DNA of 64,000 bases from a virus (taxonomy: Duplodnaviria > Heunggongvirae > Uroviricota > Caudoviricetes): IMG/VR virus record IMGVR_UViG_3300031992_000010; one strand, given 5' to 3'. Positions 1 through 52,864 of the stretch are shown here, piece after piece. Position numbers and translations under genes: made by a program. The notes beneath the pieces are model-generated. The model did not search any database. It saw nothing but the letters and a program-made list of their open reading frames with translations, and was not told the origin of the DNA. Each line of letters opens with the position of its first letter. Positions within the stretch are counted from its first letter, which is position 1.

Positions 1-545
1 CTGCCAATACAATTACATTTGGTCCCATTCCATAGTTTTTCATACGACCAACGGTTTGGATTGAATTTGAGTGGGTACACAAGTTTTGCGGCCGCCGGGT
101 TAAACATAAATCCGTTTGTCCACGTATGTTTGTGGGGTGAAACATAGGGGGCGGCAACAACCGGTTCGTTTGTATCACAGACATTGAGGTACCAATCCTT
201 ATGGTTTATGAACTCGGATTTCCACATTTTTCTGACGGTTTTTTGCCAATCAAGTATTGAAACACCTTCGGGTGGGTAACATTCCGGACCTATATACTTG
301 ATTTCGTCCGATTTGGATAATGCCGGGTTACTGTTACCCGCCCCTTTGGTGTGTATGTATAGAACCGGTTCATTTATCCTCACCGATTCCTCAAGGGCAT
401 ATTTTATCGCCGGATATTCATACCGGGAGCCATTATGTACCACCGGGATAATGAAATAATCCTCCTGAAATGACTGTATCAATTCATCCCCTATTTCCAC
501 CCCCCGGGGTGTATCAAGAATACCTATTACACACGTTGGTCTCAT
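1..545 (-). CDS. partial CDS (N-terminal ~181 aa; C-terminus beyond window edge), hypothetical protein of the glycosylation module
   Basis: minus-strand frame open from ATG at 545..543 to position 1 with no stop (translates MRPTCVIGILDTPRG...); ATGA start/stop overlap with the gene at 542..1147; absent from the ORF track because no stop lies inside the window. Confidence 0.5.
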   Translation of the reverse strand, partial: MRPTCVIGILDTPRGVEIGDELIQSFQEDYFIIPVVHNGSRYEYPAIKYALEESVRINEPVLYIHTKGAGNSNPALSKSDEIKYIGPECYPPEGVSILDWQKTVRKMWKSEFINHKDWYLNVCDTNEPVVAAPYVSPHKHTWTNGFMFNPAAAKLVYPLKFNPNRWSYEKLWNGTKCNCIG

Positions 546-1147
546 TTTAAGGATTTGAGTATTTTACTATGTTCCCAAATATATTTTGCCAATGGCACCC
601 CATTCGTTAAAATATCATTTGGGAGTTTTATATATTCCCTGTTTTTGGTATTTATAAATAATATCTGTTCCTTTTGTGCAACAATTATTTTATATTTATT
701 TTTGGATTTGAGAACATCACATATTTGCCTCCGGGTATAGTAATTTTCTCCGGGTTGAACCGATCCGAGTATAAAAATTGGTTCCAAATCACCCATACGT
801 AATAATCTCTCATTATATTTGTTTAATATATATGTTTTAATATTTTTACTTTTAATATTGTGGTCAACATTATTTTCCTCAAAATTTATGGTATTATCGA
901 AAATATAATGAGGATAAAATATTACCACTTTATTGTCTATAATAATATTGAATTTATCCGGATGTGATTTGTTGGGTTCGAGCCGATAATTATTGAAATT
1001 TATTATTTCATAATTGTCAATAAGATATTTTATACTATTATAATCAACAATACAATATGCAAAAGGATTGCATATTTGTTGATTTAGTTTATTTTTATCA
1101 ACCATTATAAAACTTGCCGCACAACTATTACCTATTAAATTATGCAT
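542..1147 (-). CDS. hypothetical protein (201 aa), glycosylation-module member
   Basis: ORF track; translationally coupled to flanking minus-strand genes. Confidence 0.5.
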   Translation of the reverse strand: MHNLIGNSCAASFIMVDKNKLNQQICNPFAYCIVDYNSIKYLIDNYEIINFNNYRLEPNKSHPDKFNIIIDNKVVIFYPHYIFDNTINFEENNVDHNIKSKNIKTYILNKYNERLLRMGDLEPIFILGSVQPGENYYTRRQICDVLKSKNKYKIIVAQKEQILFINTKNREYIKLPNDILTNGVPLAKYIWEHSKILKSLK

Positions 1148-1157
1148 ATGAAATAAT

Positions 1158-1883
1158 TTAATTAAAATTAAAATTTTTATTAATTAATTCATCGATACAA
1201 AAATTATGTTTTTCACATCCATTCGCCTCATTTTGCAAACATAAACCCAAATTAAATACCTCCGGTGTTTGATCCACCACAAATTTATTTGGGTGCGGTA
1301 CATACCGGATAATTATATGATTTTTTAATTCCTTATAAAATAAAAATATATCATCGGTTGTAATATATTTTTTTATGGTTTCGATATCCCCATCACCAAT
1401 ATTTAATATATTTGGGGGATATAAAACACCACCAACACCGGTCGGCATTAATAATCCGGATGGATTATTTGTTTTATAATCACGAATCCAATCCTGATAA
1501 TGTTTCATTTTTTTATTTGAAAATGTTGGTTTATGTACCCGGTATGCGGATATATAATTTGGAAATTCAATATATGATTTCCATAATAATTCAACAAAAT
1601 CCCCCGGGTACCTACAATCATCATCAATTGTAATTATAGGTACATCCGGATACCTTTGCATTGCATAAAAATATTTTAGGTGGGACCTCAAATTATTATC
1701 GGCAACGATCACCTCACATTTATTATATAAATCATTTGGAATATTTACCTCATCATCCCGATATATGGTTAATACAATTTTTTTCGGCGTATACCTACCA
1801 CCCAAAATACAATCGATTGTTTTATAAACATGTTTTAATCTTTCGTGGTGGGATGTTAAAGAAACAATACAATTTACTTCCAT
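1158..1883 (-). CDS. putative glycosyltransferase (DxD-type, ITIDDDCRY motif)
   Basis: ORF track 241 aa; DXD-like IDDD motif typical of nucleotide-sugar transferases; 10-nt overlap with the gene at 1874..3238. Confidence 0.5.
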   Translation of the reverse strand: MEVNCIVSLTSHHERLKHVYKTIDCILGGRYTPKKIVLTIYRDDEVNIPNDLYNKCEVIVADNNLRSHLKYFYAMQRYPDVPIITIDDDCRYPGDFVELLWKSYIEFPNYISAYRVHKPTFSNKKMKHYQDWIRDYKTNNPSGLLMPTGVGGVLYPPNILNIGDGDIETIKKYITTDDIFLFYKELKNHIIIRYVPHPNKFVVDQTPEVFNLGLCLQNEANGCEKHNFCIDELINKNFNFN

Positions 1884-3238
1884 AAATTAATATATTTTGT
1901 TAACCAATCATTAATACCGATTTTCCCCCAACTTCCGGCACCAAAATGAACAATATAATTATTATTTATTATTTTCGACATATTGGATTTTGCGGCAATT
2001 AAAAAATACCCACCGGTATCATATCGTTCACCTTTATCCGATACGTTTAATCCGTGCATATAATTTTCATTAAAATAATGAATCCCATTCTTTTTACATA
2101 AAGGTGTATTTATATAACAAATAAATGGTGATATTCTATCGGTACCCAAACGTTGATGGTGAATAATGTCGGCAACACAATATTTTGTCGGATTAATTAA
2201 TCCGGAAATATCCTTTTTAAGTAAAATATCGGAATCAAGTAATATAAATTCATTTTTAAATATATCCATAAATTTTTCCACAGTCCAACAATGTTTTGCG
2301 GAACCACATTTATTTATTTTAAAACCATATGAATTTATGTGATTTGGATAATTTTTCAACCATTTATCAAAATCAATGATTTGTCCTTTGGTATTATCAA
2401 TATAGTGGATTAAAGGAAATTTTTCATATGGGAATGGCCTTGTGGTACTATTATCAAATATATATACATCCGAATTGGGTGTAAATTTGCATATCGACAT
2501 ATATAGTGCGGTCGTAAGTTCCGGGGTATTAAAATGCACTATGACAAGATTCACCCTTTTTTTATTTCCTTGTCCAATATGTTGGGGATTAATCTCAAAA
2601 TATTCGGAATCCCTCACGATCATTTTTGGAAGGCTGTGAACCCGATAACCGGTTTTCCATATACAATAATTAAACGATAATTGGTCCCGGTGTGAACCGT
2701 TTTTAATCTCATTCCACCACATATCATCCAATTCACAAACCCAATCGACATTATGACGAACCAATAGATTGGTTTCGTTCAGGCCGAAATGTACAGGAAA
2801 CCCCTCATTTTTATAACGTTTTATTTGGGCCTCCGATTCAACACCGTTATCCTTTTTCATCCTCACACACACAACACGTTCGTCATATATACAATTGCGT
2901 TGAGGATGTTGTGGAACCGAAAAGTCCTTATTTTTACATATTTCGTTCACCAACTTCCACATACCCACCTTAATATGAATATTGCCGTCGACATATACCG
3001 ACCATTCGTGGTCGGGTAGAAACCGGTGTGGTTGGGTTTTAATACATCGCTGGCGTTTAACCGGCGAAAGGTCCTTGAGTTCCTCCGGTATTGGGTGGAT
3101 TTCCCAAATATTATTTATTATGTTTTGATCGGTAAAACAAATATACCGCCATCCTTTTGAAATTGTTTTAGGTATTTTTAAGGTATCATACGGTCCACTA
3201 ATTATAGTGTAACATATATTATCCATATTTGAAATCAA
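1874..3238 (-). CDS. putative two-domain glycosyltransferase (N-terminal DUF616/TOD1-like region YTIISGPYD...ICFTDQ)
   Basis: ORF track 454 aa; N-terminal signature resembles the DUF616 glycosyltransferase-like family; first gene of the minus-strand operon. Confidence 0.45.
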   Translation of the reverse strand: MISNMDNICYTIISGPYDTLKIPKTISKGWRYICFTDQNIINNIWEIHPIPEELKDLSPVKRQRCIKTQPHRFLPDHEWSVYVDGNIHIKVGMWKLVNEICKNKDFSVPQHPQRNCIYDERVVCVRMKKDNGVESEAQIKRYKNEGFPVHFGLNETNLLVRHNVDWVCELDDMWWNEIKNGSHRDQLSFNYCIWKTGYRVHSLPKMIVRDSEYFEINPQHIGQGNKKRVNLVIVHFNTPELTTALYMSICKFTPNSDVYIFDNSTTRPFPYEKFPLIHYIDNTKGQIIDFDKWLKNYPNHINSYGFKINKCGSAKHCWTVEKFMDIFKNEFILLDSDILLKKDISGLINPTKYCVADIIHHQRLGTDRISPFICYINTPLCKKNGIHYFNENYMHGLNVSDKGERYDTGGYFLIAAKSNMSKIINNNYIVHFGAGSWGKIGINDWLTKYINLWK

Positions 3239-33451: not shown

Positions 33452-33753
33452 TGGCTAAAAAAATTAAACCAATATTACTACCAAATCGATACGGGGATAA
33501 GAATTATCTTGTCCCGTTACAGGAATGGAAAGGTGATGCCATCACCAAAGGCGCATATAAATTCGAAGGTGATAAAAACGCCGGGGATACAATGCGTTTC
33601 ATTTTGGGTGACGATAATAAATCCATCGAGGCATTCGATCCATCCGGCGGTCCTATGTTGGGCATCGGCGATGAGGTAAGACCCGGTGAAAAAATAACCG
33701 GTATTGTATTTAAAAAAGGTGAAGGATTAATAATTTATACAACGATTGATTAA
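33451..33753 (+). CDS. hypothetical protein (100 aa)
   Basis: ORF track. Confidence 0.45.
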   Translation: MAKKIKPILLPNRYGDKNYLVPLQEWKGDAITKGAYKFEGDKNAGDTMRFILGDDNKSIEAFDPSGGPMLGIGDEVRPGEKITGIVFKKGEGLIIYTTID

Positions 33754-34843
33754 AATGTACGGGACTGTGGAAAATATATGGGATGCATTGAATAAACTTC
33801 GTGACGAAGGATTAATAAGTATTCGCCGTCACCCGGTATATCCAATAAGTGTCATCAAATACACCGCGGAGGCAATGTATGATGGATGGCTGAAAGGACC
33901 TGAATCCCATAATTATCCTTATACATTATTGCCATACCTGCGTGGTATTGTAATCGACGACAAAGGTAAAATTGTCAGCGGTTGTTTGAAAAAATTCTTC
34001 AACGTGGAGGAATTACCGGAAAACGAGGCCGATTATATTATGGCACACGCCAACGCCATTACCGAGAAGTTTGATGGTACCTGTATGTTATTGTCGGAAT
34101 ATGACGGTGAAAAATTCTTCCGTACATTGGGATCGTTTGATTCCGGGCAGGCCTTAAATTCAAATAAACTATTTCTCACCACCGTTTCCAACCTGAACAC
34201 CCGGAAATATACATATATGTTTGAATATATATCACCGGAGGACCGTAAGGTGGTAAACTATGGTAACGAAACACAACTTGTATTTATATGTCGAATCGAT
34301 AACGAAACAGGCCGGGATGAATTTTTTGAGGAGATTAATGATGATGATATATTTTCATTAATGGATTTTAAACACGTCATAATTCAACACCTGGATAAAA
34401 ATATATCGGCATTAAAAGGTCTTGATATCGATAATGCGGAGGGATTTGTTATCCGTGCGGAGAATGGGGCACGTATGAAAATCAAATTCGAAAACTACCT
34501 TGAAAAATTCCGTTCAAAGTTCCAATATACCATCAACGATGCACGGATGGATTGGCTTGAAAATGCCGGCGGAGATTATGATAAACTTGCCGCCGAATAT
34601 AAGTGGGACGAGGAAATGGCGACATATGTTAAAGGATTGTTTGCCCGCTGGGATGACCAATATGAGGCAACCCGGAAGGTGATATATGATATTTATGCAC
34701 AATATAAGGATCTTCCAACGATAAAGGATTTCGCCATGGCGGTAAATGAAAATCCATATCGCGCGGCCTTGATAATGTTATATAAAAACAAAAACCGGGA
34801 CTGTATGGGGTGGATAAAAAAATTCGTCATAAAATCAAAATAA
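33746..34843 (+). CDS. rnlA: RNA ligase 1 (T4 RnlA-like)
   Basis: nucleotidyltransferase motif I TEKFDGT; N-terminal stretch YLRGIVIDDKGKIVSGCLKKFFNVEE parallels T4 Rnl1 [30 protein letters not shown]; C-terminal MKIKFENY parallels FKIKSDWY. Confidence 0.6.
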   Translation: MIKMYGTVENIWDALNKLRDEGLISIRRHPVYPISVIKYTAEAMYDGWLKGPESHNYPYTLLPYLRGIVIDDKGKIVSGCLKKFFNVEELPENEADYIMAHANAITEKFDGTCMLLSEYDGEKFFRTLGSFDSGQALNSNKLFLTTVSNLNTRKYTYMFEYISPEDRKVVNYGNETQLVFICRIDNETGRDEFFEEINDDDIFSLMDFKHVIIQHLDKNISALKGLDIDNAEGFVIRAENGARMKIKFENYLEKFRSKFQYTINDARMDWLENAGGDYDKLAAEYKWDEEMATYVKGLFARWDDQYEATRKVIYDIYAQYKDLPTIKDFAMAVNENPYRAALIMLYKNKNRDCMGWIKKFVIKSK

Positions 34844-34894: not shown

Positions 34895-35980
34895 ATGAGA
34901 AAATTGGCAAGTATAAGAACAATTAGTTCAACCTACCCAATTAAAGGTAAGGATCGTGTTGAAATGGCCGTTGTCGACGGTTGGACCTGTATGGTAAGCA
35001 AGGCTGACAATTTTAAGCCGGGTAGTCCATGTGTATTTTGTGAACCCGATTCGGTTTTTCCACAAACGGAAAGATGGGAGTTCCTAAAAAAATACAACTA
35101 CCGCATCAAAACACAAAAATTCAAGGATGAGGATGGCAACGCCATTTATTCACAAGGTTTGGTACTCCCAATGAGTGCGGTAACCGGTGGAAAGGTGGGC
35201 GACGACGTAACGGAACAATTAGGTATCACCCAATACGAGAAAACCATGGATATCGAAAAGGATGAACCGGTTAAATCAAAAAATCCTTTGATGAGATACA
35301 AATGGTTCCGTAACCTTAATGCCAAACTATTCGGCAACGTGGTTACCCGCGAACGATTCCCGGAGGAGGTATCAAAAACCGACGAGGAACGTATCCAAAA
35401 CTGTCCTAACAAACCGGCATTGTCCGCGATTTGGACCATGACCGAGAAGGTTGACGGCCAATCGGGCACATTCCTATTGAGAAAACATAAGGGGTTGTTT
35501 GGTACCAAATATGAGTTTGTTGTTTGTTCGCGTAACTTTAAGACCAATAATAAAAATACCTCATATTGGAAATGTGCGGAAAAATACCACATTGAGGAGG
35601 CATTAAAAAATATTATTGGCGATAACGAATGGATTTGCCTTCAAGGTGAATGTCTTGGTCCTGGCATTCAAGGCAATAAGTATAAGTTTACCGACTATGA
35701 ATTTCGTGGGTTTAATTTGATTACACCAAAGAAACGTTTGGGTAGTGGATATTCGGCGGAATTAATGGCGGAACAAAACATTCCGTGGGTACCAATACTT
35801 GGTGAAATTTCAGGTGATCAATTAATGGAATTGGGTGTTGATGGTATATTAAGGGCGGCAAATGGACCTTCCAAATTAAATCCGAATACCAAACGTGAAG
35901 GTATTGTATTTAGAAGTACCAATGGTACACTATCATTCAAGGCGGTTTCACCGGAATTTTTGATCAAATATAACGAATAA
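34895..35980 (+). CDS. ATP-dependent RNA ligase of the NgrRnl/DraRnl type (Rnl5-like)
   Basis: N-terminal MRKLASIRTISSTYPIKGKDRVEMAVVDGWTCMV...FKPGSPCVFCEPDSVFP signature domain; lysyl-AMP motif TEKVDGQS. Confidence 0.5.
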   Translation: MRKLASIRTISSTYPIKGKDRVEMAVVDGWTCMVSKADNFKPGSPCVFCEPDSVFPQTERWEFLKKYNYRIKTQKFKDEDGNAIYSQGLVLPMSAVTGGKVGDDVTEQLGITQYEKTMDIEKDEPVKSKNPLMRYKWFRNLNAKLFGNVVTRERFPEEVSKTDEERIQNCPNKPALSAIWTMTEKVDGQSGTFLLRKHKGLFGTKYEFVVCSRNFKTNNKNTSYWKCAEKYHIEEALKNIIGDNEWICLQGECLGPGIQGNKYKFTDYEFRGFNLITPKKRLGSGYSAELMAEQNIPWVPILGEISGDQLMELGVDGILRAANGPSKLNPNTKREGIVFRSTNGTLSFKAVSPEFLIKYNE

Positions 35981-39055: not shown

Positions 39056-39475
39056 ATGATTAGCGAGATTACTTATGATGGTGGAAAATATGGGTTTCAA
39101 GCGTTGTCACACGTTGAATACCAACCAATGGAACCCAGCGGAATTAAACGTATCTATAAAAAAGGTGACCGTATCCACTATCGTGGCCTATTTGGTACCG
39201 AAAAGGTAAGCAAGGACAAGGTTTATGAGGAGGATGGATATACCGTTTATAATAGCGAATTGGAACGTATATGTCCGTATACCATCAAACAGTTGTTTGA
39301 AATCGGCCATATTGATTGGGATACACATATTATAATCGACGGGGAAATATACCTGAAACCATATATTGTAGTTTACTTTTTGAATGGTGATAAATTGATA
39401 TCACACTTTAATACAGATGAGGAGGCGCAGGAAAAATATTACGAAACATTAAAATCAATGGAAACCAATGAATAA
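39056..39475 (+). CDS. hypothetical protein (139 aa)
   Basis: ORF track. Confidence 0.45.
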   Translation: MISEITYDGGKYGFQALSHVEYQPMEPSGIKRIYKKGDRIHYRGLFGTEKVSKDKVYEEDGYTVYNSELERICPYTIKQLFEIGHIDWDTHIIIDGEIYLKPYIVVYFLNGDKLISHFNTDEEAQEKYYETLKSMETNE

Positions 39476-39866
39476 AAATTTAATCATATTACGAGGCCTG
39501 CCCGGGGCAGGAAAAAGTACCTTCGCGGAACTTATTTCCGGGGGCAATGCGGATATCGTTTGTACCGCGGACGATTACTTTATGGTCGATGGTGAATATA
39601 AATTCGACCCGGCAAAACTTGCCACGGTTCATTCATTATGCCGGGAAAAGTGTGAAAACCTTATGAAAAAGGATGCGCCGCTTGTTATTGTCGCCAATAC
39701 AAACGTACGTGAACAACACTTCGAGGAGTATATCAATATGGCGAAAAAATATGGGTACCGATGGTTTTCCATCGTGGTTGAAAACCGCCACGGGGGTAAA
39801 AGTATCCACAATGTACCTGCCGAAAAGGTGAATTTATTAGGACAAATATTTAACATAAACCTATGA
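39468..39866 (+). CDS. polynucleotide 5'-kinase (T4 Pnk kinase-domain-like, P-loop)
   Basis: ILRGLPGAGKSTFAE Walker A; ...CTADDYFM follows like the T4 Pnk N-terminal domain; 132 aa stand-alone kinase domain. Confidence 0.5.
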   Translation: MNKNLIILRGLPGAGKSTFAELISGGNADIVCTADDYFMVDGEYKFDPAKLATVHSLCREKCENLMKKDAPLVIVANTNVREQHFEEYINMAKKYGYRWFSIVVENRHGGKSIHNVPAEKVNLLGQIFNINL

Positions 39867-45547: not shown

Positions 45548-45982
45548 ATGTATATAGCGGTTGATTTTGATGGGACGTGCGTAACACACGCATATCCGGA
45601 AATAGGAAAGGATATCGGTGCGGTTCCTATATTAAAACGTATTGTGGAACGAGGTCATAAATTAATATTATTGACTATGCGTTCCCATCCAAAAAACGGT
45701 CAGGATTCACCTAACCTTAAACAACAAGGCCTTACGCCTATACCAAAAACCCGTGACACCTTAAACGAGGCGATCGAATGGTTTAGGAATAATGGTGTGG
45801 AATTATATGCGGTGAATGGAAATCCATCACAATATGGGTGGACCAATTCAAAAAAGGTATATGCAAATCTTTATATCGACGATGCCGCATTGGGTGTACC
45901 ATTAAAATTCGATGAAACCGGACGTGGATATGTCGATTGGGAAACGGTTGAACGTGTTTTGGAATTATATGGAATAATATGA
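45548..45982 (+). CDS. HAD-family phosphatase resembling the T4 Pnk 3'-phosphatase domain
   Basis: motif I AVDFDGT (T4 FDVDGT); HKLILLTMRS versus T4 YQIVVVSGRE; LYIDDAAL versus T4 LAIDDRTQ. Confidence 0.5.
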   Translation: MYIAVDFDGTCVTHAYPEIGKDIGAVPILKRIVERGHKLILLTMRSHPKNGQDSPNLKQQGLTPIPKTRDTLNEAIEWFRNNGVELYAVNGNPSQYGWTNSKKVYANLYIDDAALGVPLKFDETGRGYVDWETVERVLELYGII

Positions 45983-46569
45983 TGATAATACAATACATAC
46001 GAAATTTTTTCGGCCACCTGGGAACAATACTCAAACATAAGTATTATGTGGGCAAATATTGTTTCAAGGCCGGATTATATTTACAGGGGATTACCCACGA
46101 CCTATCAAAGTTCCACCCGGTGGAATTTTTTGAATCCGTCCGCTGGTATGATGGTCACATATCGCCCATAGATAAATGTAAGAAGGCAAAAGGTTACTCC
46201 AATGCCTGGTTCCACCATCGCGGTAGAAATAAACATCACTATGAATTTTGGTGCGATAATTTCGAAAAGGGGATCACGTGTGTGGATATGCCATATAAAT
46301 ATGCGTTGGAAATGTTATGCGATTATATAGGTGCCGGGAGAGCATATATGGGTGGAAAGTTTTCATTTTCAAAGGAATATGAGTGGTGGTCAAAAACAAA
46401 ACAGCCGGTTGCAAAAATGTCGGATAATACAAAACAATTTATTGATTCCTGTTTATTTTCATTGGCGCAGTTGGAGGAAAGATGGCCGGATGAGATTGAT
46501 AATTTTTGGAAAAATAAAACATATAAAACAATTTGGAATTTAACAAATAAACAACAAAAGAATGGATAA
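45979..46569 (+). CDS. hypothetical protein, weak HD-like His/Asp signature (GHLG...ITHDLSKFH)
   Basis: ORF track. Confidence 0.3.
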   Translation: MMIIQYIRNFFGHLGTILKHKYYVGKYCFKAGLYLQGITHDLSKFHPVEFFESVRWYDGHISPIDKCKKAKGYSNAWFHHRGRNKHHYEFWCDNFEKGITCVDMPYKYALEMLCDYIGAGRAYMGGKFSFSKEYEWWSKTKQPVAKMSDNTKQFIDSCLFSLAQLEERWPDEIDNFWKNKTYKTIWNLTNKQQKNG

Positions 46570-47170
46570 AAGTAACGTTTTTAGATTGGAATTGGTACAA
46601 ATCAAAAACACCGAATTACGGAACGCCATTATCGGTTATTTCGAGAATTGCGTGCCCGAATATTTTTGGACTATGCCTGCATCGTCGACAGGTAAATACC
46701 ATCCGGATCAGGACTCCGGTGAGGGTGGCCTGGTAAGACATTCGCGTATGGTAACACAGGTGGCGATTGCGTTGTTGCAGTTGGAAATGTGGTCGACATT
46801 GAAACCTTATGAGGACGACATATATGCTGCCTGTTTAATCCACGATACGTGGAAGTTGGGTGATATGGTAACCGAATACGAACAAGGTAAAACATACTCG
46901 GTTCACGACCACCCATTATTTGCAAGCCACAAATTCTATGGATTTGTGCAGACGTGGCCCAACGCAAGCGATGAATTGAAAAAACATTGTCAAACAATAT
47001 GTCAATGTGTGGAAACACATATGGGTCAATGGAACAAGCCAAAGTTTCCCGGTGCCGGGCAGGTATTGAAAAAACCGGAATCGGCAATACAAAAATTCGT
47101 CCATTTATGTGATTATATCGCCTCACGGAATTTTATAGGCAATTTGGATAAGATTGATGGTAAAATATAA
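46562..47170 (+). CDS. HD-domain 5'-deoxynucleotidase (YfbR-like)
   Basis: LVRHSRMVTQVAIALL parallels YfbR NVSEHSLQVAMVAHALA; ACLIHDTWKLGDMVTE parallels LAMYHDASEVLTGDLPT. Confidence 0.5.
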   Translation: MDKSNVFRLELVQIKNTELRNAIIGYFENCVPEYFWTMPASSTGKYHPDQDSGEGGLVRHSRMVTQVAIALLQLEMWSTLKPYEDDIYAACLIHDTWKLGDMVTEYEQGKTYSVHDHPLFASHKFYGFVQTWPNASDELKKHCQTICQCVETHMGQWNKPKFPGAGQVLKKPESAIQKFVHLCDYIASRNFIGNLDKIDGKI

Positions 47171-47237
47171 TCGTAAATAATTAAAAATCATTACCATAAA
47201 TTTATTTTTATATAAATAACAAAAATTTAATAATTTT

Positions 47238-48011
47238 ATGTATAAGTATATAGGAATACGAGGTCATCGTGGGTCGGGGAAATCCTCGATCGCATTGTTG
47301 ATTGCATCCATTCTCGACACCTTAAAAACCGGTGGCAATGTGGATGAGGTTTATGGTAATGTGGTTGATTGTATCCACACCGGCAAGGATTGCGGCAGTT
47401 TCCATAACGTTTATATTGAAACATTCTCCGACACGCCAATAACATTAATTCATATGATATTTGGAATACCAATGGAGGATTGTTATGATGATTGGAAGAA
47501 GGATAATATGTTTATAAACCTGAAAACATATGAATATACCGACACGGTTCCGGAGGAAAGGTGGAATGCCACCGAATATTTCGAAAAACGATGTAACGAG
47601 GTGGATTGTGAGGCATCCCCCCATAAAATCAAGGACGATGTGTGGTTTTCGTTGCGTGAGTTGATATCATATTACGGCAACTATGTGATGAAATATTTTT
47701 TCGGCGCCAACGTATGGATAAAATCGATGAATGTATTTGAATCCGAAATGGAGGAATTTTATACCGGCGATGAGGTTGTATGGAAAATTTACTCGGACGT
47801 GAAGTTTACGTCGGAGGTGGATTTCATCAAAAAACGTGGCGGCATAATCATCAATCTAAAGCGCCCGCACAAGGATAAGGGGAACCTCGATACGTCCACC
47901 AACCTCAAATACGACAAACGTATTGACTTTGAATTGGAATATGATGAGATAGGTTCCGAAAGTACAATGAATAAAATCAAGGAAATTTCAACTAAAATTT
48001 ATGAAGGTTAA
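47238..48011 (+). CDS. deoxynucleoside monophosphate kinase (T4 gp1-like)
   Basis: N-terminal MYKYIGIRGHRGSGKSSIALLIA parallels T4 gp1 MKLIFLSGVKRSGKDTTADFIM; length of 257 aa matches. Confidence 0.5.
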   Translation: MYKYIGIRGHRGSGKSSIALLIASILDTLKTGGNVDEVYGNVVDCIHTGKDCGSFHNVYIETFSDTPITLIHMIFGIPMEDCYDDWKKDNMFINLKTYEYTDTVPEERWNATEYFEKRCNEVDCEASPHKIKDDVWFSLRELISYYGNYVMKYFFGANVWIKSMNVFESEMEEFYTGDEVVWKIYSDVKFTSEVDFIKKRGGIIINLKRPHKDKGNLDTSTNLKYDKRIDFELEYDEIGSESTMNKIKEISTKIYEG

Positions 48012-49632
48012 GAAAATAGCCATCGATGGTTTCAAGTCCTTTTATAAAAGAACGGAAATCGATTTCGATGATGTGAAAGGTTTGTGGAGAATTTCCGGTG
48101 ATGTAGGTGCCGGAAAAACAACCATTGGCGAGGCGATAATGTATGGATTATTCGGTGATGTTAAAGGTAAGAATAACGCCGCCCTTGTCTCGTGGGGCTT
48201 AAAAAAAGGATTTATAGAGGTATGGTGTGAAAGCGCCGGCCGGGACATATATATCAAACGTGAGTTTCGACTTCAAGGTCAGGCGTCATTATATGTAACC
48301 GTGGATGGTGAGGAATTAATATTCACCAACAAACGTGATGCGCAAGGCCAACTCGAAAGTGATTACTACGATATTTCCCGGATGACGTTGGAATTGTTGT
48401 GTATAGTAAGTTTTAATAACTTCAAGTCAATCACCACATTAAACGCGGCGGATACCAAAAAGTTCCTCGACCAGGTATTTGGTTTTTATATTATAACCCA
48501 ATATGCGGACGCCACAAAGGATCTCCGGAATGAATCGATTGAATTGGAGGGGGAAATAAAACAATCCATTAATAACATCCAAATGCAAATCAATAAGATT
48601 ATTGAGATGTCCAATAAAACCAAAATTGAGGGTGATATGGATAAAACCTTTGCCGATATGAAATCCCAAATATCATTGCAAAAACAGGCGAAGGAAAAAT
48701 TCATTAAATTCCAAACCGAACAAAATAAAATACTCCGGGAACTCCAATCAAAATTGTCGGAAATTAAGACGTTGGGTCTGAATAAGAAAAAGGAAATTGA
48801 TTTCATCAAACAAGGCATATGTCCTACCTGCGGTGCCCCGATAGACCAATCACAGTTGCCTATAAAGGAAAAGGAAAAGGAAATGTTGGGTGAACAATAT
48901 AAGGAGGTAAATGAAAAATACCAAACGGTTTCCGGCAGAATCACGGACCAACAAACCAAGTGGAGTAAAATTGATACCGAGTATGGCAGTAAGATAGTGG
49001 AATTGAGTTCGTTATATAATCGTCTTTTGGATCAATCAAAACGCACAAAAATCAATACGTCCGAGATAGATAAGTTAAATGGCGATATAAAGGATTTACA
49101 GGATAAACTCCTACTTGCGGAAAAGGATACGGAGGAATGGAATCAATTATTCGATTTGTTTACAACAAACATGAGGACGAATACCCTATCGAACTTCATT
49201 CCTATCCTAAATCAAAACATTGCGCGGTATATGTCGCAATTGCACCAACCTTACGAATTGAAGTTTTCAAACGACTTCAAAAGCGAGTTGATAATCTTTG
49301 GAGTCGACCGGCCAATACCGGTGAGTTCACTTTCGACCGGTCAATTAAAAACGGTGGATATGACCGCGATGTTGGGTGTGTTGAGTGTTATTATGCATAA
49401 TGTAAATTTTAATATAATGTTTTTGGATGAGTTAATTTCCAATATGCATAGTGACCTACGTGATATGGTTTGTGAGGTGTTGCGTTCATCCTTACATAAG
49501 GATCAAACAATATTCCTCATTTCCCATACCGACCTAAACAATACATACCTCGATGGCGAGATTGAGGCCAAAATGGAAATGACTAAAAAATTCAGTAGGG
49601 AAACCACAATAAAAATCAATAAGTTTAATTAA
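48001..49632 (+). CDS. Rad50/SbcC-like SMC-type ATPase (T4 gp46-like) with zinc hook
   Basis: N-terminal KIAIDGFKSFYKRTEIDF...GDVGAGKTTIGEAI Walker A; central coiled coils with CPTCG hook; C-terminal LSTGQ signature and MFLDE Walker B. Confidence 0.6.
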   Translation: MKVKKIAIDGFKSFYKRTEIDFDDVKGLWRISGDVGAGKTTIGEAIMYGLFGDVKGKNNAALVSWGLKKGFIEVWCESAGRDIYIKREFRLQGQASLYVTVDGEELIFTNKRDAQGQLESDYYDISRMTLELLCIVSFNNFKSITTLNAADTKKFLDQVFGFYIITQYADATKDLRNESIELEGEIKQSINNIQMQINKIIEMSNKTKIEGDMDKTFADMKSQISLQKQAKEKFIKFQTEQNKILRELQSKLSEIKTLGLNKKKEIDFIKQGICPTCGAPIDQSQLPIKEKEKEMLGEQYKEVNEKYQTVSGRITDQQTKWSKIDTEYGSKIVELSSLYNRLLDQSKRTKINTSEIDKLNGDIKDLQDKLLLAEKDTEEWNQLFDLFTTNMRTNTLSNFIPILNQNIARYMSQLHQPYELKFSNDFKSELIIFGVDRPIPVSSLSTGQLKTVDMTAMLGVLSVIMHNVNFNIMFLDELISNMHSDLRDMVCEVLRSSLHKDQTIFLISHTDLNNTYLDGEIEAKMEMTKKFSRETTIKINKFN

Positions 49633-49677
49633 ATTTTTTCCGGTTTCACAATATATTAATCCATAAAAATTCAATAT

Positions 49678-50490
49678 ATGCAAATAAATAGTGAGTTACC
49701 ATTATGTATGTTAAATATAGGAACGGCATTAAATGACTATGATTTTGTCCTCCTACATTTAATGGATAATGAAAAATACCTCAATTGGGTATTACGTCAA
49801 CGCCGGGAATGGCCGGATCGTTTGATGATAATGGATAATAGTGCATACGAATATTTTGTAAAAGGTGAGGAATTTAATCCAAAGTGGTATGCCGAAATGA
49901 TTGGTATTGTCAAACCGGACTATTATATTCTTCCGGATAAATTAATGGATAAGGATGTCACGTTGGAAAGATCCATCGAATATTTAAAAAAATATTCAAC
50001 GCGAGGCCTCGAACGACCACTTGCGGTGGCACAAGGCAATTCGGAGGAGGATTTGGTGGAATGTATCCTAAAATACAAGGAAATTGGTATTGAATACTTG
50101 GGTATTCCATTCCATCTAAAGTTCTACACCAAAATGGAACACGACTTCGATATTATAAAGGTTTTCAAGTCAAAATATCCGGAAATATCGGAGGATATAT
50201 TATATGCCATGGGCAGGGTACAATTCGTCCGCAATCATATGGATATAATAAATGAATTTCCAAAGGTTCATTTTCTTGGATCACATTGTCCGCTCGAAAA
50301 GGTTTTTTACAAATGGGGCAATGCCACGATGGATACCGGTTATCCGGTCAAGTTGGCGATGGAAGGTATAAAGTTATTCAAGGAGACCAAAAAACCGGAA
50401 ATTATCATTGATGATTTCCTATATAATAAATTAACGGACGAACAACAAGGTTTAATTATAAATAACGTAATGAAATTCAAATTGTTATGA
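49678..50490 (+). CDS. hypothetical protein; possible TGT/DpdA-like 7-deazaguanine DNA transglycosylase (speculative, based on position next to queC)
   Basis: 270 aa, Asp-rich conserved stretches; no motif verified. Confidence 0.25.
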   Translation: MQINSELPLCMLNIGTALNDYDFVLLHLMDNEKYLNWVLRQRREWPDRLMIMDNSAYEYFVKGEEFNPKWYAEMIGIVKPDYYILPDKLMDKDVTLERSIEYLKKYSTRGLERPLAVAQGNSEEDLVECILKYKEIGIEYLGIPFHLKFYTKMEHDFDIIKVFKSKYPEISEDILYAMGRVQFVRNHMDIINEFPKVHFLGSHCPLEKVFYKWGNATMDTGYPVKLAMEGIKLFKETKKPEIIIDDFLYNKLTDEQQGLIINNVMKFKLL

Positions 50491-51050
50491 GAATAATATT
50501 TACAGGGGCACAAGGAACCGGGAAAACAACGATTCTAAATCACTTTCAAGGCAAGCAACCTATTATAACGAATGTATGTAGAACGTTGGCAAAAAATGGG
50601 GTAAAAATAAATGAAATGGGCGATGACGAATCACAGGCGGCAATTTTTGATGTATATTACGACCTATTATCCCGAAAGAATTATATCAGCGACCGTGGTC
50701 TAACGGATGTGATGGCATATAGTAAGTGGTTATTTGAACACGGCCGTTTGAGTGAAAAGGAATGGAACCGTGAACAACGTATATTCAAAACATTCATCAA
50801 GGCATATCCGGCGATATACTTTTATTTCCCAATAGAATTTAGGATTGAGGATGATGGCGTCCGTTCCACGGATGAGGACTTCCGTAAGGAAATCGATACA
50901 AACATTCTAAAATCATTACAGGATAATCCGGAAATTCCGGGTCTTACGGTACACGGTAGTGTGGAGGAACGACTTGAATTTATCAACCGGATGCTACAAT
51001 TTTCAACAAGATTAATTAACGCATTTTCAATAAATGGAAAAATTATATAA
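50487..51050 (+). CDS. P-loop NTPase/kinase (AAA_28/NadR-C-like nucleoside or nucleotide kinase)
   Basis: IIFTGAQGTGKTTIL Walker A at the extreme N-terminus; ~185 aa. Confidence 0.45.
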   Translation: MRIIFTGAQGTGKTTILNHFQGKQPIITNVCRTLAKNGVKINEMGDDESQAAIFDVYYDLLSRKNYISDRGLTDVMAYSKWLFEHGRLSEKEWNREQRIFKTFIKAYPAIYFYFPIEFRIEDDGVRSTDEDFRKEIDTNILKSLQDNPEIPGLTVHGSVEERLEFINRMLQFSTRLINAFSINGKII

Positions 51051-51274
51051 TGAAAAATAATATGGAAAAGGAAACAACGGAAAAAACAACAACAGGCGGA
51101 ATCTCATTTTGTGGATTACTTACAATTGTATTTATAGTATTAAAATTAACCGGATTTATCGGTTGGAGTTGGTGGTGGGTATTGGCACCAATATGGGCTC
51201 CGGTGGCATTGGTCCTAACCTGTTGGATAATATTATGGACAATTGTTGGCATAAAAATTGGAATGAAAAAATAA
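51050..51274 (+). CDS. small double-TM membrane protein (paralogue of 3587..3778)
   Basis: see 3587. Confidence 0.45.
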   Translation: MKNNMEKETTEKTTTGGISFCGLLTIVFIVLKLTGFIGWSWWWVLAPIWAPVALVLTCWIILWTIVGIKIGMKK

Positions 51275-51286
51275 ATATTAAATAAT

Positions 51287-52021
51287 ATGGAAAAAAAGGT
51301 AGTTTTAAGTTTAAGTGGTGGGTTGGATTCCACGTGTCTTTTGATGACCTATTTGGCGAAAGGTGCGGAGGTCAAGGCCTATTCATTTAAGTATGGACAA
51401 AAACATTCCATCGAATTGGAGAAGGTTGTAAAAAACATCAAATTTCTTCAGGAAAAAGGTTTCAAGGTCGAACATCACATTATTGACCTAACGTCGGTAT
51501 TCAACGAAAGTTCAAGTTCATTATGCGGTGATGGGGGTGATATCCCGGAAGGCCATTATGCGGATGAAAATATGAAGTCCACCGTGGTTGAAAATCGTAA
51601 CGTAATCTTTAGTTCGATTATATTCGGTAAGGCATTAAGTTGGGCAAAACATACTGATTCGAATGTGGTAATTTCACTTGGCATCCACGCAGGCGACCAC
51701 GCCATCTATCCGGATTGTACACCACAATCACAACAGGCGGCCGAACATTTGTTTAAGATTTCAAACTGGGAATCGGAACGTGTATCCTATATGGCGCCGT
51801 TTGTAAATGTGGATAAAGGTGAGGTTCTTGGATTTGGATTGGAGGCAATGAAACAATTGAACTTTACGGAGGATGAAATCAACTTCGTATTGGGTAATAC
51901 CCACACCTGCTATAATCCCAACGAAAAAGGTGAAAGTTGTGGTAAATGTGGATCCTGCACGGAACGTTTGGAGGCATTCGAACATAACCATATCAAGGAT
52001 CCGGTACCTTATCAAAAGTAA
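51287..52021 (+). CDS. queC: 7-cyano-7-deazaguanine synthase QueC
   Basis: SLSGGLDS PP-loop, YGQKH, ENRNVIF (VPGRN), YPDC, C-terminal zinc cluster CGKCGSC; 244 aa. Confidence 0.8.
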   Translation: MEKKVVLSLSGGLDSTCLLMTYLAKGAEVKAYSFKYGQKHSIELEKVVKNIKFLQEKGFKVEHHIIDLTSVFNESSSSLCGDGGDIPEGHYADENMKSTVVENRNVIFSSIIFGKALSWAKHTDSNVVISLGIHAGDHAIYPDCTPQSQQAAEHLFKISNWESERVSYMAPFVNVDKGEVLGFGLEAMKQLNFTEDEINFVLGNTHTCYNPNEKGESCGKCGSCTERLEAFEHNHIKDPVPYQK

Positions 52022-52040
52022 TAACAAACAATTAAACAAT

Positions 52041-52313
52041 ATGGAACAACAGGATAACAAACAAAAAATGGTATGGTTTTCCATACCAAAGGAGGCGATC
52101 AAAAATAAAACGGCAAAGGCGGTATTGATAGCATTTGGCGGACCGGAAATATATTCCCACAAGGATATTCCATTACAATATAAGTGTTGGCTTCCATTTT
52201 CGAGGGTGACCGTAACGTCAATGAATGCGAATATGATGAAGGTTGAGTTGCCATTATGGCTGGCCGAAAAAAGTATTGTATCACAATATGCAACTTTACA
52301 GGGCCTGAATTAA
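52041..52313 (+). CDS. hypothetical protein (90 aa; start trimmed from track ORF 51873)
   Basis: first ATG after the queC stop. Confidence 0.4.
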   Translation: MEQQDNKQKMVWFSIPKEAIKNKTAKAVLIAFGGPEIYSHKDIPLQYKCWLPFSRVTVTSMNANMMKVELPLWLAEKSIVSQYATLQGLN

Positions 52314-52354
52314 ATTTTTTGATACAACCGTATATTTTAATAAAATTTTATATT

Positions 52355-52864
52355 ATGCAATTAACAGGAAAACAAATAACCGAAAAACAAATAATCACCA
52401 ACGTAGGCGAAAAATCCATCCAGCAACAAGGGGTGGATCTCCGCCTCAAACGTATAGGCCGCATTGACTATCGAGGCGATATGGGTGAAATGGGCTTCAT
52501 TCCTGCGGATGGCAGGACATCAACGCCTAAAACCGAATGGTATGAATCCGAATTTGAACAATACTCCATAACACTAATACCCGGATATTACGAGGTTGAA
52601 TTTATGGAGGGTTGCAATATCCCGGTAAATTGTTCCTTACAATTAAAATCACGTTCGTCGGTGGTGCGATGCGGCGGTGAGATTCGTAGTGGTCAATTTG
52701 ATGCGGGATTTAAGACCGACAATATCGGATGTTTTCTAAAGGTGGAGATACCAATGAGTGTGGAAATCGGTGCGAGAATGGCGCAGGCGTTGGTATTTGA
52801 ATCCTACCCGGTGGAAAACCTATATGATGGCCAATGGCAGGGGGATAAACAAAGAAAATCATAA
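52355..52864 (+). CDS. dCTP deaminase/dUTPase-superfamily protein
   Basis: GVDLRL (Dcd VDVRLG-like) and FDAGFKT (IDPGW/IDAGYRG-like) motifs. Confidence 0.45.
   Translation: MQLTGKQITEKQIITNVGEKSIQQQGVDLRLKRIGRIDYRGDMGEMGFIPADGRTSTPKTEWYESEFEQYSITLIPGYYEVEFMEGCNIPVNCSLQLKSRSSVVRCGGEIRSGQFDAGFKTDNIGCFLKVEIPMSVEIGARMAQALVFESYPVENLYDGQWQGDKQRKS

Follow-up and report, generated by a model that had tools for sequence, protein, structure and literature searches.

The stretch of DNA considered here (the window) comprises 64,000 nucleotides of the virus record IMGVR_UViG_3300031992_000010 in IMG/VR, a member of the Caudoviricetes, and all open reading frame (ORF) coordinates given without a locus handle refer to it. 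Between 45548 and 52864 it carries an island, a run of co-directional ORFs on the plus strand, whose downstream part joins a putative guanine transglycosylase resembling DpdA3 to QueC, a synthase of the 7-deazaguanine pathway; this candidate DNA-modification system is our subject. Families were assigned by profile searches against Pfam, NCBIfam and PHROG, in which 62 window ORFs were scanned. An ORF check of the window recovered every gene named in the initial annotation, which had been read from the letters alone, as a real ORF on the plus strand in the same place, and its list proved correct at superfamily level; it had passed over three ORFs (45979-46569, a DUF5662 protein; 51050-51274; 52041-52313). 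The downstream part contains the following genes.

49678-50490, plus strand: DpdA3-like guanine transglycosylase of 270 residues, predicted to be a minimal TIM barrel of the tRNA-guanine transglycosylase (TGT) fold without the zinc subdomain.
50487-51050, plus strand: P-loop protein of nucleoside/nucleotide-kinase fold (AAA_28, 1.5e-15), whose start overlaps the stop of the DpdA3-like gene.
51050-51274, plus strand: small hydrophobic two-helix membrane protein of 74 residues (phrog_1374, 3e-22), conserved in close relatives.
51287-52021, plus strand: QueC, 7-cyano-7-deazaguanine (preQ0) synthase (PF06508, 160.5 bits against a cutoff of 22, 5e-47).
52041-52313, plus strand: ORF of 90 residues lying downstream of QueC and ahead of the DCD-like gene; it is annotated as a gene on the identical contigs and on related ones.
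52355-52864, plus strand: dUTPase-type dNTP pyrophosphatase of the DCD family (PF22769, 3.6e-11; NF002598 dUTPase, 1.7e-19).

Megablast matched the 7.3-kb island to none of 50,697 phage records. A longer assembly, the ENA contig ERZ27257202:k141_6601392 of 210,090 bp, shows 100% identity with the window across 14 kb, and our reading of this contig covered the 64-kb window and about 30 kb beyond it.

When the 270-residue protein was compared by tblastn with phage genomes, 18 phage records matched, among them DpdA3 of Flavobacterium phage vB_FspM_immuto (hereafter immuto; gp206, E 5e-18) and of Campylobacter phage CP220 (gp056, E 5e-19), both over the full length and at 24-26% identity. The immuto match is annotated 'DNA guanine transglycosylase DpdA' and those in the Campylobacter phages CP220, CPt10 and CP21 are filed as hypothetical proteins; they belong to the DpdA3 subfamily, which has been found in phages whose G is all replaced by a 7-deazaguanine derivative (Hutinet et al. 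2023, PMC10516641). In a large protein database the relatives of the 270-residue protein fall into at least 390 clusters, none with a Pfam domain, on contigs of up to 218 kb, and the protein belongs to a separate metagenomic clade, apart from the DpdA3 of CP220 and immuto.

A profile of the DpdA3-like family gave chance matches only against PDB sequences, so that a comparison of folds was needed. The AlphaFold2 model, computed from an alignment of 46 relatives, has a predicted local distance difference test score (pLDDT) of 94 and shows eight strand-helix units forming a (beta/alpha)8 barrel of the TGT type. Three aspartates, D53, D87 and D219, are invariant among the 46 relatives and the homologues from immuto, CP220 and the Bacillus, Weizmannia and Chryseobacterium phages, as are H198, G201 and R180 in the same alignment. 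The motifs MDNSAYEF, ILPD, AQGN, HFLGSHCPLE and MDTGYPVK follow one another in the same order as TDSGGFQV, FDEC, IQGS, LMGVGKPED and MFDCVMPTR of E. coli Tgt, which hold D89, D143, the QG pair and D264; with the single E. coli Tgt sequence as target, hhalign gave the family a weak match (E 0.24) over the D87/QG stretch only. TGT and DpdA have three invariant catalytic aspartates in common (PMC10164549), and we propose D219 as the candidate nucleophile, D53 as the candidate acid/base and D87 as a residue that may recognize the base. The Cys cluster is absent from the protein, whose chain ends about 50 residues past strand 8, and CP220 and immuto DpdA3 are likewise without it. Transfer RNA TGTs have a zinc-binding CxCxxC...H subdomain, which is not a defining feature of DpdA3. 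The DpdA3-like family has a median isoelectric point (pI) of 5.1, but E. coli Tgt is acidic as well, so that neither pI nor net charge could tell a DNA from a nucleotide substrate. The initial annotation had left this protein uncharacterised and had proposed comparing it with TGT and DpdA; that suggestion was well placed, and from the modelled TIM barrel and the full-length homology to DpdA3 we conclude that it is a putative DpdA3-like transglycosylase, whose aspartates would be the catalytic equivalents of those of TGT.

QueC lies 0.8 kb downstream of the DpdA3-like gene in the same operon: the stop of the DpdA3-like gene overlaps the start of the kinase gene (ATGA), whose own stop overlaps the start codon of the 74-residue ORF (TAATG), and QueC begins 12 nt further on. 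The QueC equivalog TIGR00364 scores just below its cutoff (136.9 against 150.3), and both the PP-loop SLSGGLDST and the Cys cluster HTCY...SCGKCGSC are intact; an SGGxDS PP-loop and C-terminal zinc-binding cysteines are what we take to be the hallmarks of QueC, after the structure of the B. subtilis enzyme. The gene had been singled out at the outset as a marker of 7-deazaguanine DNA modification, and that reading is upheld. The remaining genes of the pathway had been presumed to lie outside the window or to be supplied by the host. Indeed, tblastn with FolE, QueD, QueE, QueF, DpdN, ThyA and PRT of immuto found no match in the window, and among 52 more ORFs of the window Pfam recognised no PTPS, radical-SAM, GTP-cyclohydrolase, QueF, thymidylate-synthase or ArcS family. 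Some 76 kb separate two loci on the 210,090-bp contig: the DpdA3-like gene, near 58 kb, and an operon of QueD (PTPS), QueE (radical SAM) and FolE2 (GCHY-1), near 134-137 kb. FolE2 scores above its NCBIfam cutoff (247 against 215); the best models for the other two are QueD and QueE, with scores under the equivalog cutoffs. A relative of 204,027 bp, with 89% identity in the DpdA3-like protein, repeats this two-locus layout. With QueC in the window and QueD, QueE and FolE2 on the same contig, the phage thus encodes a complete preQ0 pathway.

Following the established queuosine/Dpd pathway, FolE2, QueD and QueE would convert GTP into 7-carboxy-7-deazaguanine, which QueC would turn into preQ0 using ATP and ammonia; the TGT-fold transglycosylase would then take guanine out and put the deazapurine in via a covalent aspartyl-deoxyribose intermediate, and the expected benefit would be resistance to host restriction enzymes. 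None of the post-preQ0 enzymes sought in the window (QueF, a glutamine amidotransferase domain, ArcS/DUF5591, a formyltransferase) was found, and we therefore predict as end product 2'-deoxy-7-cyano-7-deazaguanosine (dPreQ0), or its 7-amido counterpart (dADG) if QueC releases the amide intermediate.

Pathway genes at related loci, designated here by L and a number, show some variation of their own. The immuto QueC (L001 18607-19488) is without the C-terminal cysteines TCY...CGKCGSC kept by the window QueC and its relatives and has two insertions; according to the literature immuto DNA nonetheless has a preQ1 derivative. At L171 2989-4947, on the same IMG/VR contig as L008, an ORF of 652 residues has a QueC-like start, 70% identical to residues 4-143 of the window QueC and then divergent, which could reflect an insertion, an intein or a fusion. 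Proteins of 428-492 residues, encoded at L003 13933-15219 and by homologues in L007, L008 and L010 near DpdA3-like, QueE and FolE2 genes, match DUF5591, the ArcS core, weakly and under its cutoff (E 9e-4), and may be archaeosine-type tailoring enzymes in relatives of this phage. Finally, the small phosphoribosyltransferase-like gene gp211 of immuto (L001 31931-32326), absent from the window, has matches in 30 QueE/QueC loci of IMG/VR; its product could make the nucleotide from the free base.

The second locus adds to the candidates for base insertion. Downstream of FolE2 come a homing endonuclease gene and then two genes located in L194, on the same 210-kb contig and about 76 kb from the genes in the window.

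L194 13715-14149: ParB-like gene encoding a 144-residue protein with a ParB N-domain (ParB_N, 31.6 bits against a cutoff of 26.3).
Within L194 13715-14975: second TGT-like gene, 277 residues (phrog_887 'queuine tRNA-ribosyltransferase', 8.8e-15), overlapping the end of the ParB-like gene.

The 277-residue protein has the motifs LDSGGF, ELDNEY, AIGGLA, HLLGCQN and VDYS; its profile found no match among PDB sequences, and hhalign against the DpdA3 alignment recovered the HLLG motif only. Bacterial DpdA requires the ParB-like ATPase DpdB (PMC10164549), and by analogy the phage pair resembles a miniature DpdB/DpdA pair, the second TGT-like enzyme probably acting on DNA as well. Given a ParB-paired TGT-like gene and a DpdA3-like gene in one genome, the phage has two candidate insertases with different partners, a ParB-like protein for one and a kinase for the other. 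The cassette recurs beside QueE or FolE2 in many IMG/VR contigs (L005, L015, L094, L043-L048, L056) and also in Campylobacter phage CC_R7, at 58% identity; at L056 4827-6628 its TGT-like gene is present in two tandem copies. The homing endonuclease between FolE2 and the ParB-like gene (L194 12055-13647, 530 residues; phrog_3339, DUF7487, Vsr and a weak sub-threshold match to Mom) is missing from the equivalent site, L181 10969-12508, of a relative with an 89% identical DpdA3-like protein, and is therefore a presence/absence polymorphism of a mobile gene. In L010 (6321-7940) a member of the same endonuclease family interrupts the gene of a family-B DNA polymerase.

The company kept by DpdA3-like genes was surveyed in two sets of non-redundant loci. 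In a set of 15, taken with 10 kb on either side, the genes met repeatedly were QueE (8), QueD (7), FolE2 (7), QueC (6), the AAA_28 kinase (6) and a DCD-like gene (5); in a larger set of 78, many cut at 3 kb, neighbours counted within 2.5 kb on the same strand were QueC at 62/78 loci and QueE and QueD at 46/78 each. We hold it quite probable that the segment 49678-52864 is one of two loci by which the phage replaces G in its own DNA with a 7-deazaguanine base. The system is already known in kind, and what is described here is a new divergent member, split over two loci; beyond the genes themselves we infer that DNA is the substrate, which base is inserted, how much of the guanine is replaced and what the coupled kinase and the dUTPase-type enzyme do. 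Several points weigh against this reading. The phage is uncultured and the modification is read from genes alone; the 270-residue protein has no match in Pfam or NCBIfam and is only about 25% identical to DpdA3 of characterised phages; D53 and D219 are likened to TGT catalytic residues by motif resemblance only; and the second TGT-like gene makes the division of labour between the two enzymes ambiguous. In addition, DpdA3 activity has never been reconstituted, attempts in E. coli having failed (Hutinet et al., PMC10516641).

Upstream of the DpdA3-like gene the island carries five more genes.

45548-45982, plus strand: HAD-type phosphatase (phrog_1238, 1.4e-29; BT0820-family model, 82.5 bits against a cutoff of 165).
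45979-46569, plus strand: DUF5662 protein (PF18907, 1e-29), with synteny only in close relatives.
46562-47170, plus strand: HD-domain phosphohydrolase (Pfam HD PF01966, 22.9 bits against a cutoff of 22; phrog_5889, 5e-40, a family of unknown function).
47238-48011, plus strand: dNMP-kinase-like protein, a candidate relative of T4 gp1 (phrog_139 'dNMP kinase', 4.4e-15).
48001-49632, plus strand: SbcC/Rad50-type (T4 gp46-like) recombination ATPase (phrog_77, 5e-53; SMC_N, AAA_23).

The names first given to these genes fared unevenly. A T4 gp1-like dNMP kinase is borne out by PHROG 139 and not by Pfam, where DNMK (PF21448) reaches 14.4 bits against a cutoff of 27.1, so that the protein seems a distant relative of the gp1 kinase at best; another phage (L171) has a homologue upstream of its QueC, at a distance of about 1.6 kb. 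The label of YfbR-like 5'-deoxynucleotidase had to be dropped in favour of a generic HD domain, no YfbR-type model, NCBIfam match or solved relative having been found by sequence. The Rad50/SbcC-like ATPase was correctly named; it is a recombination gene embedded in the island and stands outside the modification pathway. In four relatives (L011, L014, L016, for example L016 10912-11952, and L008 10795-11736) the gene immediately after the DpdA3-like one encodes a calcineurin-like metallophosphoesterase of 313-346 residues, perhaps a nuclease of the SbcD/gp47 type, and in three of the four it sits between the DpdA3-like gene and the AAA_28 kinase. As for the phosphatase called Pnk-like, the HAD family stands and the Pnk label does not. 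The window also holds an Rnl1-like RNA ligase (33746-34843), a PHA02142/Rnl2-like RNA ligase (34895-35980) and an AAA_33 (Pnk-type) kinase (39468-39866); a phosphatase, an AAA_33 kinase and two RNA ligases together being what a phage set for tRNA/RNA repair usually comprises, the HAD phosphatase probably belongs with these genes rather than with DNA modification.

A role in RNA might likewise be sought for the preQ0 genes, either as a boost of preQ0 for queuosine in host tRNA or as tRNA modification by the TGT-like enzymes, the DNA staying unmodified. The TGT family is ancestrally one of tRNA enzymes, and Q-boosting has been raised for phages that have preQ0 genes without DpdA (Hutinet 2019, PMC6884629). 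We nevertheless find this explanation very improbable: the nearest characterised relatives, CP220 and immuto, have fully modified DNA (PMC10516641), the 270-residue protein lacks both the zinc subdomain and the C-terminal domains of tRNA TGTs (E. coli Tgt has 375 residues), the genes sit in a replication/recombination module beside a gp32-like single-stranded DNA-binding protein, the SbcC-like ATPase and a helicase-like protein, and ARAGORN found no tRNA genes in the window (1-64000).

The gene coupled to the transglycosylase, rightly called a P-loop kinase from the start, has a Walker A motif and a kinase fold with a substrate lid (NadR-RNK/dNK/TMPK-like). We disfavour for it the part of a DpdB-like ATPase partner, as this nucleoside/nucleotide-kinase fold is unlike a ParB-like one. 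Its orthologs lie two genes downstream of DpdA3 in immuto (gp203, 35% identity) and directly after DpdA3 in CP220 (gp057, 31%). In CP220 a fusion of an HD domain with an AAA_33 kinase, which shares with the window HD protein a domain analogy and no detectable homology, immediately precedes DpdA3, and in immuto a MazG/PRA-PH-type pyrophosphatase stands two genes upstream of it. Two phages, BSTP12 of Bacillus and Youna2 of Weizmannia, encode a protein of 183-187 residues with a Walker A motif, whose gene ends on the start of the DpdA3-like gene, with DNA polymerase I next; in BSTP12 this protein has a match to the thymidylate-kinase family phrog_761 (9.5e-16). A P-loop protein of 156 residues directly precedes the DpdA3-like gene in Chryseobacterium phage MA9V-3, where a DCD-like gene 40% identical to that of the window lies 1.6 kb upstream. 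Two stricter forms of the association were rejected. The AAA_28 kinase is not exclusive to DpdA3 phages, as it occurs also in Streptomyces and Rhodococcus phages and in the Bacteroides phage SJC03 without a DpdA3 match (in SJC03 no DpdA3-like gene is near it); nor do kinases always adjoin DpdA3-like genes, a small P-loop gene being found within 2.5 kb at 16/78 loci.

The translational coupling seen here and the adjacency in several unrelated lineages lead us to keep, as a minority reading that we consider unlikely, a modification made before replication. The DpdA3-like enzyme would swap the base on free dG or dGMP; the coupled kinase, the gp1-like kinase and a nucleoside diphosphate kinase (NDK) would carry the product to the triphosphate; the dUTPase-fold or HD hydrolase would clear dGTP; and the polymerase would insert the 7-deaza-dGTP analogue, giving complete replacement and leaving the ParB-paired TGT-like protein as the true DNA-level insertase. 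Such a route would account for the P-loop kinase-type genes that flank DpdA3(-like) genes, or lie within a few genes of them, in CP220, immuto, the window, BSTP12, Youna2 and MA9V-3, for the thymidylate-kinase family of the BSTP12 gene, for a window kinase so unlike DpdB, for the NTP pyrophosphatases or phosphohydrolases, of three folds in all, that stand near DpdA3 (MazG/PRA-PH in immuto, dUTPase-fold in the window and MA9V-3, HD in CP220) and for the phage's own NDK. Modified dGTP was earlier proposed for Campylobacter phages, as cited in PMC6884629, and a nucleoside form of 7-amido-7-deazaguanine (ADG) has been reported from infected cells (PMC10516641). However, a small P-loop gene is near at 16 of 78 loci only, although many of the 78 are truncated views, the AAA_28 kinase is found in the three groups of phages without a DpdA3 match, many compact QueC-QueD-QueE-DpdA3 clusters show no kinase in view, dNMP kinases and dUTPases are common in large T4-like phages anyway, and the TGT-family enzymes characterised so far all act on polynucleotides. 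All 7-deazaguanine DNA modifications were later proposed to be post-replicative in a study whose main text nowhere contains the word 'kinase' (Hutinet et al. 2023, PMC10516641), and our literature search found no study settling the two proposals. The AAA_28 and gp1-like kinases, the HD protein and the dUTPase-type enzyme may represent no more than the ordinary nucleotide metabolism of a large T4-like phage. The NDK itself (L019 4444-4845, 133 residues) is encoded outside the window, about 5.5 kb past its right end, and the best NCBIfam models for the protein are all NDK, under their cutoffs.

The last gene of the island, an ORF of 52256-52864 that gene callers on identical contigs start at 52355 (169 residues), had been introduced as a dCTP-deaminase/dUTPase-family enzyme. 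The protein has the RSS and DAG(F/Y) motifs, scores 70 bits with NF002598 against a cutoff of 130, and its closest solved relative is 9w59, a 'probable dUTPase' (1.5e-9). In the HMMER alignment to the dCTP deaminase 4xjc the column of the deaminase catalytic Glu (...TLE...) holds Gly; this residue is missing, and the protein is not a deaminase and looks like an archaeal-type dUTPase, so that of the first label the family stands, the deaminase half falls and the dUTPase half is kept as a candidate. DCD homologues also stand beside DpdA3-like genes in L002, L003, L009, L010 and MA9V-3. The 90-residue ORF that precedes the gene belongs to no family in Pfam or PHROG.

The initial annotation had gone further and raised, from the HD, dNMP kinase and DCD genes and a supposed glycosyltransferase operon at 1..3238, a second, pyrimidine-directed and possibly glycosylated hypermodification in the manner of T4. 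A gp1-like kinase candidate and a DCD-family gene do lie within 5 kb of each other, and 1874-3238, on the minus strand, does encode one TOD1/MUCI70-like glycosyltransferase-like domain. The operon, for its part, did not hold up, as the two ORFs neighbouring this gene have no Pfam match and it lies about 42 kb from the island on the opposite strand. Moreover, the 62 window ORFs include no thymidylate-synthase, dCMP/dUMP hydroxymethylase or DNA glucosyltransferase family, the DCD-family protein is without the deaminase Glu, and DCD-like genes accompany DpdA3-like genes in other phages; a pyrimidine modification of this kind therefore has little to recommend it, and we think it most improbable.

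The contigs carry gp23-like capsid, T4-type portal and gp32-like genes. Across the window, GC skew stays positive between about 4 and 60 kb and flips sign at both ends, in line with the switch of coding strand. Record names of related contigs suggest a rumen origin, and the annotation of one kinase homologue places it in a Parabacteroides metagenome-assembled genome; on these two grounds we would guess at a Bacteroidota host.

If guanine replacement by the two loci is the correct reading, DpdA3-type deazaguanine modification extends to a large metagenomic clade, unannotated and without a Pfam model, that counts at least 390 protein clusters on contigs reaching about 218 kb, and one phage can carry two TGT-family transglycosylases, one with a ParB-like and one with a kinase partner. 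Fully G-modified DNA resists many restriction enzymes and can bias the sequencing and cloning of such phages. The recurring pairing of DpdA3 with a kinase also offers a testable handle on whether 100% replacement of G is achieved post-replicatively or via the nucleotide pool. Although we doubt that a nucleotide-pool pathway, and not a repair-like post-replicative exchange, explains complete replacement by DpdA3-type enzymes, its consequences would be considerable: DpdA3 would be the first TGT-family enzyme to act on free nucleotides, the hydrolase clearing dGTP would be of dUTPase fold here, MazG-like in immuto and of HD type in CP220, and the disagreement between the 'modified dGTP' of 2019 and the 'all post-replicative' of 2023 would be settled.

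Among known systems, pre-replicative replacement is the rule in T4, with the dCTPase gp56, the hydroxymethylase gp42, the dNMP kinase gp1 and NDK, and in Z-genome phages, with MazZ, PurZ and DatZ. The dNTP pyrophosphatase, nucleoside/nucleotide kinases, HD hydrolase and NDK around the DpdA3-like gene recall these systems by gene neighbourhood alone, but the association of kinases and hydrolases with DpdA3-like genes is not universal, and we know of no enzyme that makes 7-deaza-dGMP from dGMP. Closer at hand is the DpdA3 of CP220 and immuto (PMC10516641), with which the present system shares a minimal transglycosylase of about 260-270 residues with full-length homology, the co-occurrence of QueC, QueD, QueE and a GTP cyclohydrolase, an orthologous AAA_28 kinase adjoining the transglycosylase or two genes from it (31-35% identity), and a large myovirus-type genome. 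It differs from them in the divergence of its DpdA3-like protein (24-26% identity, whereas CP220 and immuto DpdA3 are 44% identical to each other), in a pathway split into two loci 76 kb apart, in FolE2 (type IB) where immuto has FolE, and in a second TGT-like gene with a ParB-like partner; as neither QueF nor DpdN was found in the window, an end product different from theirs is expected. The bacterial preQ0 insertase DpdA/DpdB, from the dpd cluster of Salmonella Montevideo (PDB 7ui4; PMC10164549) is more remote: the window protein has 270 residues against 413, 14% identity and no zinc-binding cluster, its partner has a nucleoside-kinase fold and is not a ParB-like ATPase, the phage ParB-like protein is just 144 residues long, and of DpdC and the restriction genes dpdD-K none was seen. 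The second locus of the phage, for its part, resembles by gene content the cluster B mycobacteriophages Rosebush and CRB2 (PMC6392294, PMC6884629), in which a cassette of ParB-like (DpdB-like) and DpdA-like genes lies by the preQ0 genes; here that cassette is outside the window, and the phage adds to it the pair formed by the DpdA3-like gene and its kinase.

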